The notes: generated by a model not told the origin, from the sequence alone. A DNA stretch of 36,079 nucleotides from a virus (IMGVR_UViG_2690316109_000010); one strand, 5' to 3'. Counted from the first letter of the stretch, positions 24,342 to 33,052 are shown. Translations and numbers: made by a program.

Positions 24342-25537
<1,196 letters not shown>

Positions 25538-26168: not shown

Positions 26169-26245
26169 TGGCGCGCTGTACTGGATTCGAACCAGTGACC
26201 GATTGCTTAGAAGGCAATTGCTCTGTCCGGCTGAGCTAACAACGC
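26169..26245 (-). tRNA. tRNA-Arg (anticodon UCU)
   Basis: The reverse complement folds as a cloverleaf: acceptor GCGTTGT/ACAGCGC, D arm GCTC...GAGC, anticodon stem ATTGC/GCAAT with loop CTTCTAA, T arm ACTGG-TTCGAAT-CCAGT, 3' CCA. Confidence 0.85.
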
Positions 26246-26349: not shown

Positions 26350-26425
26350 TGGTGGCCCTTGCTGGATTTGAACCAGCGACCTGGCGATTATGAGTCGCTC
26401 GCTCTCACCACTGAGCTAAAGGACC
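26350..26425 (-). tRNA. tRNA with CAU anticodon (ileX/ileZ-like tRNA-Ile2, or Met)
   Basis: The reverse complement GGTCCTTTAGCTCAGTGGTGAGAGC...CTCATAA...GCTGGTTCAAATCCAGCAAGGGCCACCA folds as a cloverleaf with anticodon loop CTCATAA; closely resembles E. coli ileX as I recall it. Confidence 0.8.
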
Positions 26426-29540: not shown

Positions 29541-29569
29541 ATAAAAACAAAAACCCGCCGAAGCGGGTT
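29541..29569 (-). terminator. Terminator / 3' structure of the hok mRNA
   Basis: aacccgc-ttcg-gcgggtt hairpin on the minus strand followed by a U-rich tract. Confidence 0.6.
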
Positions 29570-29636
29570 AAGTGCGGGTGCGTTGAGGATGCTGCCACAT
29601 CAGAGGTGGCGAGGGATTTCTCCCTCGCCGGGTCTC

Positions 29637-29792
29637 TTACTCCTCAGGTTCGTAAGCTGTGAAGACAGCGACCTCCGTCTGGCCGGTTCGGATTCGTACC
29701 TCGCAGAGGTCTTTCCTCGTTACCAGTGCCGTCACTATGACGGTTAAACAGATGACGATCAGGGCGATTAACATCGCCTTTTGCTGCTTCAT
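29637..29792 (-). CDS. hok: Hok-family type I toxin (HokD/RelF-like)
   Basis: 51 aa, MKQQKAMLIALIVICLTVIVTALVTRKDLCEVRIRTGQTEVAVFTAYEPEE, a Hok-family membrane toxin; ATG at 29792 after AGGAG; the frame is open upstream to 29849 (mok-like leader). Confidence 0.85.
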   Translation of the reverse strand: MKQQKAMLIALIVICLTVIVTALVTRKDLCEVRIRTGQTEVAVFTAYEPEE

Positions 29793-30354
29793 AGCCTGCT
29801 TCTCCTTGCCTTTCGGCACGTAAGAGGCTAACCTACATGTGTCTAGCATGAAATTGGCCTCAGGTTAATGTTAAGCGTCTTGCCGGACGCGTAATGTTAA
29901 CTGGGGCTTTTCTCTATCTGCCTTTGGTGTTCATGCCTGAGGCAGATAGCCTCAAGCACCCGCAGCAATTCTACTTAACTCACGTCACCTCGCCAATATA
30001 AAATCAATCAGAAAGGCGATCCGTAAGAACAACAGCAAGGCAATAAATTGCCATTACAGCCGCAATAGCTAGCGCACATTTGAGAACCAGCACGACAACC
30101 TCCTGTATTGGACGTACACCAGTCCTGATGAATATGAGGCTGTCTCGTCAGTGATTCAATACAACTATTGGGTATAGTTTCTCTGATTTTTTCTGTGGAA
30201 ATGGGGCTCAACCACTAGTCACCACCAGCACTTCTTTTAATACGCAAAGTCCGACACAAGCTAACCTTCTAGTCCGCTTTGAGCGAGGAGCGGAAGTTTA
30301 TAGACATTTCTTGCACTGCATTGTCTAATCAATTAGGAGCTGGTAACGTGCCCT

Positions 30355-30381
30355 GAGTAAATAAGCCCGCATATGCGGGCG
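30355..30381 (-). terminator. Terminator-like hairpin downstream of the DUF262 gene
   Basis: Palindrome gcccgcatatgcgggc followed by a U-rich stretch on the minus strand, about 40 nt after the stop. Confidence 0.45.
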
Positions 30382-30420
30382 CTATGTACGCTCTGTTTTA
30401 TATGGTGCAAAGTGCCCCGT

Positions 30421-32214
30421 CTATCTGAAACGCTCAAACAGTGCAACCATTCCTTCAGGAGCGATATCTCTGACCTGGGCTCCTTGCCGCTCAACCCACT
30501 TACCAGCTATATGTGAAGGGGTATCCTGACCTAAAATTTCGAAGACGAAAACCGTCTTATCGAAGTATCGAACGCATTTAAGATGAGTGTTTATGTAGGA
30601 CTTAAGCGGTTCTGAAAGTCCTGAGCGTCCTACCCGATCAGAGATGTCTTGGAACATCTGGTCAAGGTTCTTTCCAGCGTGGTTCGCTTCGTGATCAACA
30701 CCAGTTATATGGAAGCCGTTATAAGATAAAGCCTTGCTTCCGAAAATCTCCTGAACTCTTGTTGCAGTATGCGCATTTTCAGCAACCCCTACAAGAACAT
30801 AGCCCTTGTGTCCTCTGCCGATATTAGCAATAGCAGCGCAGGTCTCCATAATTTTTTCGAAGGAGCGTTCATCAAAGGAAGGTGATGGGTCTAAAGTATA
30901 GAAACCTTGTTTAAAATCGTAGGCCGCCTGCTCAGTTATTGAGTTAGTGAGTAAATTTTGGAGCTTCGTGATCCAATGAACTTTTGCAGGATCTGGATTT
31001 TGATCGTTTTCAAAAAAGCCCTGAATCCAACCAATTATTGAATCGACCATTCTACTCCGGTTGTCAGCCCCCCATCTCCCTCCATCTTGAACCTGAATAT
31101 TCCTACCGCAATCTTTCAGCCGCCCAATGAGGCCCGCACTATCTGAAACCACCATACCCCTTTTAATTATCAGGTCATGCATGGCGAGAAAGACCACCTG
31201 AAAGTAACGGGGGACTGGATTACCACCATTTCCGTTAGGAAAAATCAAACCAGAGAATGTCGTTTGAGCCTGACTAAGAAGTAGGATTATCGCATCATGT
31301 ACTCTTTGATAATCAAGATCGACTAGCTCCCCGGTTCTCTTTTTAATAGCTTGATCAATCGCTTCGAATCTTGCTTTGCTGGCTAAAGCTTCCGGGGATA
31401 TTGCTCCATAGTAGTCATCTAGAAGCTCTGTACGCGAGGCCAGAGGTTTGTCAGAAACCATATAAGCAAGAATGTCCGCCACTATCTCTTCATCCCGGCT
31501 CTGTCTTAACTGCTCCTTCGTCAATATTCCGTTAACAATCCAGAAGACGCTATCGGCACTAATGCCGTAGTCTAAATCCTTGTTCGTGATGCTAATTTTT
31601 TTCATCTCGCTTAAGAGCAAGAGATCCGCGTTAGATGTGTCACCACGAACTCTTGCGGAGATCTTCCGAACACATTCCGCAAACACATTTGTAGCACCTG
31701 CTGCACGCAACTCCTGTCGTGAGAGCTGACGTCCACCTGAGTTAATTCGCCTGAACACTTCCTCAACTGAGTCTCTCTCGGCTGCTTCATAAATTGAAAG
31801 CGGGACAGGATATGATGCTATTGCAAGACACTGGCTTCGATCAAGGAGTGGCATCTTCTGATCAATGACTCCGCGATCTAATAGGTCTTTCGTCGTCGCG
31901 AACGTATTTAAATCAAAGTAGAATCCATTAAATGAAAAATCGTTCGAGATAAAAGACATGATGGCATTCATACGCTGCATCCCATCAATAATCTCGAGAG
32001 TGCCGTCTTTTCTCCCAAGAGGTTCTGCTAACAAAATGATAGGTATCGGGAATCCCTTGATTATCGAGTCAATAAAATTTTGTTTTTCCTCAATAGTCCA
32101 AATCAATTTACGTTGATACTGTCGATTCACAACGTATTTTTTATCCTGATAGTTGATAAACACTCGCTCAACTTGTTCGCCACGAACTATTAGTTCTTGT
32201 TGTAACGTTGCCAT
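30421..32214 (-). CDS. DUF262 (ParB-like nuclease/NTPase domain) protein, putative anti-phage defense or Type IV restriction-like enzyme
   Basis: About 597 aa from the ATG at 32214 (AGGACGG Shine-Dalgarno); N-terminal YVVNRQYQRKLIWTIEEKQNFIDSIIKGFPIPIILLA...IIDGMQRMNAI is the DUF262 signature (DGxQR); C-terminal half unassigned (possible DHEANH His-rich motif). AT-rich gene with its own AT-rich upstream region and terminator. Confidence 0.7.
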   Translation of the reverse strand: MATLQQELIVRGEQVERVFINYQDKKYVVNRQYQRKLIWTIEEKQNFIDSIIKGFPIPIILLAEPLGRKDGTLEIIDGMQRMNAIMSFISNDFSFNGFYFDLNTFATTKDLLDRGVIDQKMPLLDRSQCLAIASYPVPLSIYEAAERDSVEEVFRRINSGGRQLSRQELRAAGATNVFAECVRKISARVRGDTSNADLLLLSEMKKISITNKDLDYGISADSVFWIVNGILTKEQLRQSRDEEIVADILAYMVSDKPLASRTELLDDYYGAISPEALASKARFEAIDQAIKKRTGELVDLDYQRVHDAIILLLSQAQTTFSGLIFPNGNGGNPVPRYFQVVFLAMHDLIIKRGMVVSDSAGLIGRLKDCGRNIQVQDGGRWGADNRSRMVDSIIGWIQGFFENDQNPDPAKVHWITKLQNLLTNSITEQAAYDFKQGFYTLDPSPSFDERSFEKIMETCAAIANIGRGHKGYVLVGVAENAHTATRVQEIFGSKALSYNGFHITGVDHEANHAGKNLDQMFQDISDRVGRSGLSEPLKSYINTHLKCVRYFDKTVFVFEILGQDTPSHIAGKWVERQGAQVRDIAPEGMVALFERFR

Positions 32215-32650
32215 TATGTTGCCGTCCTGAGCCATTTATAGAGATATAACGATTAGGCAAAACCTGCCCTACATCACACGTACGTATCATAATAATTGAA
32301 AAGTCATAAAAATAAATATTCTTCTACAGCATCGCCCGGCATACTTCAAATGCACAAAAATAAAACACTATAAATCAATATCTTATGGAATTATTTTTGT
32401 AAAGGTGAATTGAACTTGTTACTCACTAAATTCTCCTGAATTTATGTTTTTTTTGCTAATGGACAATAATGTTGAACTGTAGATATTTGTTTTAATTGGA
32501 ATTAATTTTCGGAAAATGCTCGTATCTATGACAGCTTTTGGCACAAAGCGGACAACCACGCCAGATCTACCCTGTGCCATGAAAAATGAGAATGTCAATT
32601 CACTCTTGAACTAATGCTTTTTAATCTAGTAACGTCTAAAATACCTAACA

Positions 32651-33052
32651 TTATCCCTGATAAAATGCCAGTATGCGCTGCATAACTTCACTCATCCGGC
32701 ACTCGCGACAGATTATGTTTAGGCGACTGTCGTAGCGACGTATTTCTCCATCAGGTAACGACCAGATAAGGTCCGGATCAACCACAGCTGTTTTCTTCAC
32801 CTTTGCCCTCGAGAGTTTTTTGCGGGCGTTTTGCCAGTCCTTACGCGCCTGTTCAGACGGGAATAACCCGTAGCCGGAGTTGTATACATCGCCACTGGCT
32901 ACCAGCTCTCTGGCAAGAACGCTCATCAGATATCTAGTCGCACCTGTTTTAGCTTCCAGTTGCCGTAACGTCTCACGACCGCTCTGGCGCACGAGTTCCA
33001 CCACCTGCCCTTTAATTTTTTCCCGCTCTTCTTGTGTAAAAACTTTTGCCAC
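32651..33052 (-). CDS. Hypothetical protein downstream of the replication gene
   Basis: 133-aa ORF 40 nt after the replication-protein stop; basic, possibly DNA-binding; no family recognised. Confidence 0.4.
   Translation of the reverse strand: MAKVFTQEEREKIKGQVVELVRQSGRETLRQLEAKTGATRYLMSVLARELVASGDVYNSGYGLFPSEQARKDWQNARKKLSRAKVKKTAVVDPDLIWSLPDGEIRRYDSRLNIICRECRMSEVMQRILAFYQG

Follow-up and report, generated by a model that had tools for sequence, protein, structure and literature searches.

A DUF262-Schlafen gene, probably a single-protein anti-phage system, in an exchangeable slot of a Qin/mEp460-like prophage of Escherichia coli

The gene and the domains of its product

The DNA analyzed (IMGVR_UViG_2690316109_000010, 36,079 nucleotides, the whole of which is called the window) is a Qin/mEp460-like lambdoid prophage of Escherichia coli, whose best whole-window match among complete genomes reaches 86% coverage at 99.3%. 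Positions 30355 to 32650 host a minus-strand gene, the product of which starts with a DUF262 domain and had been proposed in an earlier note, made from the sequence alone, as a candidate for defense. In the list of open reading frames (ORFs) the gene spans 30421..32235 and encodes 604 amino acids (aa) from an upstream in-frame ATG. The second ATG (32214), which has AGGA 10 nt upstream, is the start used in RefSeq (WP_001358564.1) and in essentially all homologues, and yields a protein of 597 aa (30421..32214), the length given in the earlier note. The gene and its parts are as follows.

30421..32214, minus strand: coding sequence of the DUF262-Schlafen protein, 597 aa plus stop (604 aa from the ATG at 32235); ORF list, RefSeq, homologue length and translation
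31699..32148, minus strand: ParB-like DUF262 / GmrSD_N domain, residues 23-172, with YQRKLIW (33-39), DGMQR (77-81) and FRRINSGGR (154-162)
30985..31686, minus strand: mostly helical middle region, residues ~177-410
30424..30972, minus strand: predicted Schlafen / AlbA_2 nuclease domain, residues 415-597
30910..30933, minus strand: Schlafen catalytic motif E-x4-(E/D)-x-K, E428-QAAY-D433-F-K435, translated as EQAAYDFK
32215..32650, minus strand: AT-rich upstream intergenic region, GC 0.32, of which 32215 to 32533 is part of the cassette described below; composition and blastn boundary 32533/32534
30365..30380, minus strand: intrinsic-terminator-like hairpin 3' of the stop codon, GCCCGCATATGCGGGC followed by TTATTTA, ~40 nt past the stop; consensus scan, 6 G-C pairs, 4-nt loop, TTATTTA tail

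The hairpin agrees with the claim that the gene has a terminator of its own. The AT-richness described in the earlier note is confirmed, but it is uneven. The GC content is 0.517 in the window, 0.318 (lowest 0.1%) in the 415-bp upstream intergenic region 32236-32650, which had been put at about 400 bp, and 0.421 (lowest 0.7%) in a 2.2-kb cassette (30295-32533) carrying the gene; the gene itself, at 0.44, falls in the lowest 7% of same-size windows only. A small upstream ORF (32419-32598) was discarded as a possible partner gene. Intact loci carry no annotation for it, and the 'hypothetical protein' recorded in two genomes corresponds to the 3' portion of a copy of the gene that is frameshifted.

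The N-terminal domain corresponds to Pfam PF03235 (GmrSD_N, residues 23-172, E=2e-22, 80.7 bits vs. a cut-off of 33.2). The strings QYQRKLIW, GFPIPIILLA and IIDGMQRMNAI, on which it had been recognized, are all present, and the family profile aligns the nucleotide-binding motif DGxQR to BrxU. Fold searches with the N-terminal half hit BrxU (7.0), SspE (5.1) and DndI (4.9). The middle region is probably a ParB-associated DNA-binding ('ParBDB') module, as found after DUF262 in NsnA, GmrSD, SspE and DndB (PMC12065111).

The C-terminal half is blank in Pfam, NCBIfam and PDB sequence searches made with the whole protein. NCBIfam gives no match for the protein, and PDB chains yielded nothing for the C-terminal domain, whether queried with the full-length sequence, with the C-terminus or with either family profile; the sole match in PHROGs is a full-length family of unknown function, phrog_26759. 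The first clue came from precomputed matches of some homologues to PF04326 (Schlafen AlbA_2). This profile is matched by 30 of the 38 close homologues scanned individually and, at E<=1e-3, by 61 of the 77 sequences representing the wider family (the strongest at 3.3e-11). The C-terminus of the window protein, scanned alone, matches it over nearly the whole profile (E=2.5e-4, 22.0 bits), and fold searches with the C-terminal domain hit 3lmm (9.9), SLFN12 (8.5), SLFN11 (8.0) and SLFN5 (7.4). The identity of the C-terminus was resolved only by such fold searches and by Pfam on the isolated domain. The motif E-x4-(E/D)-x-K of Schlafen ribonucleases, as defined in PMC13056530, is found within the stretch TEQAAYDFKQG. 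On these grounds the C-terminus is assigned as a Schlafen/AlbA_2 nuclease domain. Among defense-system profiles, the best PADLOC matches, NsnA and PD-T4-2_A, cover DUF262 only. No DUF1524 or HNH domain was matched in the protein, nor in the 38 plus 77 homologues scanned, in line with the variant architecture suspected earlier.

Fusions of this kind are known. Among 5,930 prokaryotic Schlafens from RefSeq complete genomes, 1.8% are DUF262 fusions, a class named 'pSlfn7' (Perez Taboada et al., Nat Microbiol 2026, preprint July 2025; PMC13056530). The features of the class, PF03235 and PF04326 (>100 aa) in the same polypeptide and the motif E-x4-(E/D)-x-K, are all found in the window protein. One member, EcoSlfn7 of E. 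coli UC4224, reduces the plating of T7 by a factor of 538 and acts on a broad range of phages, most strongly on T7 and T3, which have unmodified DNA; no mechanism is given for the DUF262 fusion (PMC13056530). The proposal of a defense gene is supported by these data. The window gene is probably a self-contained, single-protein anti-phage system of the pSlfn7 class, carried as exchangeable hotspot cargo, the Schlafen domain of which most likely cuts tRNA or other RNA.

The kinship to nucleases of the GmrSD, BrxU and SspE type noted earlier is confirmed for the DUF262 domain; it does not extend to the effector, which is not an HNH enzyme and is most likely a ribonuclease acting on tRNA. A type IV restriction activity similar to that of GmrSD or BrxU, in which DUF262 would recognize modified or foreign DNA, the AlbA_2 module, in place of DUF1524/HNH, would bind or cut DNA, and phage genomes would be degraded directly, with neither RNA cleavage nor abortive infection, is unlikely. 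E-x4-(E/D)-x-K, the motif conserved in the family, corresponds to the ribonuclease site of Schlafens, the E. coli DUF262-Schlafen protein tested is most potent against phages with unmodified DNA, and none of the 77 representatives features DUF1524 or HNH. The restriction of T7 would argue against the sensing of modified DNA, as known from GmrSD and SspE, only if EcoSlfn7 behaves like the window protein.

Conservation and spread of the family

When 1.84 billion cluster representatives (50% identity clusters) were searched exhaustively, at least 267 clusters were recovered at E<=1e-30, nearly all made up by proteins of 580-620 aa, colinear with the query from end to end. The DUF262-Schlafen family is, as judged from these matches, old and diverse, and its architecture is fixed. 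Conservation was monitored in the 77 representatives, which are 27-52% identical to the window protein. The nucleotide-binding residues of DUF262 (Y33, Q34, R35, W39, D77, G78, Q80, R81, F154, N158, G161) are invariant. The same holds for E428 and K435 at the Schlafen site (77/77). D or E occupies position 433 of this site in 76 sequences, 75 keep an acidic residue at position 479 (E479 in GVAE, consensus GVxD/E), and 76 have E or D at position 509. Both active sites are under strict purifying selection, and this invariance indicates that the DUF262 and the Schlafen activities are evidently both required.

Close homologues are 597 aa long, and their identity ranges from 54 to 92% across alpha-, beta- and gammaproteobacteria (92% in Klebsiella, 84% in Serratia and Pseudomonas, 78% in Paracoccus). 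The gene has a GC content of 0.44 in a Pseudomonas genome of 0.66, and of 0.42 in Klebsiella variicola (0.57), and in these hosts DNA homology stops at the ends of the ORF. The gene is compositionally foreign wherever found. It occurs as a solo gene with no conserved neighbor in Pseudomonas (between guaA and a GGDEF gene), in Blastochloris (within an integrase/resolvase/Bro-N island), in K. variicola (between LysR and smpB genes) and in E. coli. The homologue of Pseudomonas oryzihabitans (CP194941.1; L003, 8001-9794), 84% identical at the aa level, stands alone between guaA and a GGDEF/EAL gene, which implies a very recent horizontal acquisition of the ORF alone. No full-length homologue was found in 50,697 sequenced phage genomes, all matches being to the N-terminal DUF262 domain.

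The gene resides in 16 of 5,426 complete E. coli genomes, always in the same prophage slot, and is more common in draft assemblies, the exact protein being present in 2,299 index blocks; it was also found in Citrobacter koseri and Salmonella. Disrupted copies were detected in 13P477T (L019), E371 and 2017.09.02CC (L020). A 1-bp frameshift splits the gene into ORFs of 392 and 209 aa in two of these strains, and ISVsa5 is inserted near the 5' end in one.

That the window copy is itself a decaying or inactive remnant, unexpressed or non-functional in the prophage, is highly improbable. A consensus promoter was not found, the AT-rich upstream region could be silenced by H-NS, and an IS5 insertion is present elsewhere in the prophage. 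Against this, the ORF is intact and keeps all catalytic residues, its DNA is 100% identical to the copy carried by 9 complete genomes, and the exact protein recurs in the 2,299 index blocks mentioned above.

The prophage slot and its occupants

The gene is bordered on one side by the early/replication block (Cro/CI, YdaT, an O-like protein, DUF977/lygF) and on the other by hok/sok, as reported in the earlier note. Compared by blastn to phage mEp460_ev081, the window features flanks 96-99% identical; homology breaks off after 30294 and is regained at 32534. The segment 30295-32533 is exactly replaced, and is therefore a single-gene exchangeable cassette, as the term island used earlier had anticipated. 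The cassette and its flanks are listed below.

30295..32533, no strand assigned: exchangeable single-gene cassette; blastn vs. mEp460_ev081
32651..33052, minus strand: upstream flank, DUF977 (lygF-like) gene of the conserved prophage backbone; Pfam PF06163, E=6e-27, and RefSeq
29637..29961, minus strand: downstream flank, hok/mok toxin ORF (29637-29849; HOK_GEF, E=3e-23) and sok antisense RNA locus (29787-29961; Rfam sok, 118.7 bits, E=1.4e-27)

Other genes fill the slot in related prophages. In mEp460_ev081 (LR597641.1; L002, 3334-4683, plus strand) it holds a 449-aa full-length homologue of PD-T7-1, a validated defense gene (PADLOC, E=4e-157), which also matches PD-T7-5 (E=1.5e-40), is annotated as 'hypothetical protein' in records, and has no match in a Pfam scan. 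In E. coli 55989 (NC_011748.1; L018, 19748-20773, minus strand), the prophage of which is otherwise near-identical, the slot is occupied by a 341-aa DUF5677 protein (Pfam, E=5.8e-34), for which no PADLOC match was obtained. DUF5677 is among the domains enriched beside defense-linked serine recombinases (2025 preprint, PMC12632615). Since relatives host a PD-T7-1 or a DUF5677 gene at this site, the DUF977-hok junction is, by sequence comparison, a defense and cargo hotspot of Qin/mEp460-like phages.

Additional features were observed outside the slot. An IS5-like insertion (24342-25537), absent from the related prophages compared, is located in the late region, and contains a plus-strand ORF (24410-25390, 326 aa, DDE_Tnp_1 plus DUF772). 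As the window runs across this multicopy element, it was probably taken from an assembly of long-read quality. Two minus-strand tRNA genes, a tRNA-Arg(UCU) and a tRNA with a CAU anticodon (tRNA-Ile in RefSeq relatives), reside at 26169-26245 and 26350-26425, downstream of the Q antiterminator. A link between these genes and a tRNA-cutting cargo was considered and rejected; the same tRNAs are found in the 55989 prophage, which lacks the DUF262-Schlafen gene, and therefore belong to the backbone. A stretch resembling the Hfq-binding small RNA isrK (29548-29628, minus strand) matches Rfam below threshold (25.8 bits vs. a gathering score of 50, E=0.012). It ends in a good terminator hairpin (29552-29569), just downstream of hok, and may be either a small RNA or the 3' end of the hok mRNA.

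Proposed function and relation to known systems

We infer the sensor cue, the RNA target and the coupling of the two domains as follows. DUF262 and the helical module would act as a nucleotide-triphosphate-dependent sensor or switch, the cue being probably phage DNA or a nucleic-acid or nucleotide signal associated with replication. Activation would free the C-terminal Schlafen/AlbA_2 nuclease (E428/D433/K435) by a conformational or oligomeric change, and the nuclease would most likely cut tRNA or other RNA, arresting translation and leaving the phage cycle incomplete. The single-lobe Schlafen domain may need pairing, and dimerization of DUF262 driven by nucleotide triphosphates might, speculatively, provide the coupling.

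Several observations weigh against this interpretation. AlbA_2 domains also bind DNA. The choice of tRNA as substrate is an extrapolation from RorSlfn5 and SLFN11/SAMD9, which have other architectures. The PF04326 score of the window protein (22.0 bits) is lower than the gathering score (25.3), and the domain goes unreported in the full-length scan. No convincing sigma-70 promoter was found in the upstream region, where the best sites match at 8/12 positions, and 3 of the 16 genomic copies are disrupted. The relation to the protein tested is also ambiguous. The 16 complete RefSeq genomes carrying the window gene do not include UC4224, itself a complete genome (chromosome of 5,047,333 bp, plasmid pUC4224_1 of 111,840 bp, assembly GCA_025369975.1), and E. 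coli hosts a second subfamily (WP_001262767.1, 590 aa), which shares only 38% identity across its entire length.

Members of this second subfamily adjoin pemIK on IncF plasmids, as in pEC295cfr (NZ_KY865320.1; L021, 6992-8764, plus strand). They feature the motif TEQPNYDFKQG and pass the gathering score of PF04326. Matches were found in 803 of 5,426 genomes, and are intact in 105 only; the majority are broken near nt 1284, so that the DUF262 and Schlafen halves are parted, and the fragments appear in RefSeq as 'GmrSD restriction endonuclease domain-containing', 'RNA-binding domain-containing' or 'AlbA family DNA-binding'. Truncated plasmid paralogues and broken prophage copies hint at a fitness cost or at frequent loss. 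An unannotated copy of the plasmid type is found in PLSDB entry NZ_CP141089.1 (L022), the 4.94-Mb 'plasmid unnamed1' of E. coli KE47, which is evidently a chromosome. UC4224 is not among the 60 listed of the 107 carriers of the plasmid paralogue. The architecture has been published and validated, and the window gene may be the published protein itself; that it is, rather than the plasmid paralogue being EcoSlfn7, is nonetheless doubtful.

The vicinity of hok/sok in the prophage and of pemIK on plasmids might suggest cargo with no role in host defense, such as a ParB-like regulator, a stabilization or addiction factor, or a latent toxin serving the mobile element. Partition and regulatory proteins are included in the ParB-fold family, the disruption of 3/16 prophage copies and the low number of intact plasmid paralogues (105/803) would fit a costly or dispensable gene, and 30% of pSlfn genes are located away from known defense genes (PMC13056530). 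This explanation is quite improbable, in view of the strict conservation of both enzymatic sites over a very diverse family, the occurrence of the gene alone in non-mobile chromosomal contexts, validated defense genes in the same slot, and the direct protection conferred by one member of the architecture (PMC13056530). Furthermore, neither a partner antitoxin nor centromere-like repeats were found.

A more specific possibility, which we regard as tentative, is that the prophage lineage is a sister of EcoSlfn7 (<=38% identity to the other E. coli subfamily) and represents the first case of a ParB/DUF262 nucleotide-triphosphate switch, a type known until now to drive DNA nucleases only, gating an RNA-cleaving Schlafen, unmodified phage DNA or a replication-linked cue leading to the destruction of tRNA. 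If so, the unusually high conservation of the protein (54-92%) would mean that a generic feature of infection is read, not a fast-evolving phage protein.

Bacterial Schlafens tie the antiviral cleavage of tRNA in humans (SLFN11, SAMD9) to phage defense, and the phage range published for the DUF262 fusion is the broadest among them, its mechanism being unpublished. The native cassette is compact (2.2 kb), sits in a defined prophage hotspot and is widespread in E. coli, Salmonella and Citrobacter, and may be a convenient model to ask what a ParB-type NTPase senses and how a ribonuclease is switched on. RefSeq, PADLOC 2.0 and NCBIfam label the gene only 'DUF262', because the Schlafen score is just under the Pfam gathering score. 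Genes of this type are therefore under-counted in defense inventories and in host-range predictions for phage therapy.

Known systems share parts of this organization. The N-terminal DUF262 domain with DGxQR (DGMQR, residues 77-81, invariant) is common to GmrSD, BrxU and SspE, in which it is an NTPase that reads DNA and licenses the fused nuclease (PMC12065111). The window protein differs in that Schlafen/AlbA_2 replaces DUF1524/HNH, and its substrate is likely RNA, not modified DNA. NsnA of the Menshen system, proposed as a DNA sensor with a ParBDB domain, and PD-T4-2_A feature a homologous DUF262 (residues ~21-194; E=9e-28 and 5.5e-18, respectively), the PD-T4-2_A match being confined to residues 29-190. 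Homology to Menshen is at the level of DUF262 only; the NsnB ATPase and NsnC genes are missing, and the effector is fused to the sensor. As to PD-T4-2, the multi-gene nature of which is implied by the name of the PADLOC model alone, no partner gene is present in the cassette.

The human anticodon nucleases of the AlbA_2 type (SLFN11, SLFN12, SAMD9) are 7-17% identical to the bacterial domain, which consists, in contrast, of a single lobe. SLFN11 and SAMD9 cut tRNA once the fused sensor is triggered (PMC13056530), and the sensors of the three human proteins (a helicase, PDE3A binding, a STAND ATPase) are unrelated to DUF262. Closer in design is RorSlfn5, a phage-activated tRNase cutting the anticodon arm (PMC13056530), which joins a Schlafen nuclease effector and a sensor in one polypeptide, and is a model for the probable action of the effector described here. 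In RorSlfn5 the nuclease is N-terminal (E15/D20), and a C-terminal Ig-like sensor binds the tail assembly chaperone of T5; in the window protein the nuclease is C-terminal, and the sensor, a ParB-type NTPase fold, should respond to nucleic acid or nucleotides rather than to a protein of the phage. EcoSlfn7 is the nearest of all, having PF03235 and PF04326, the same host species, a single-gene organization and an intact E-x4-(E/D)-x-K motif, and broad protection against phages is the phenotype to be expected for the window gene as well.

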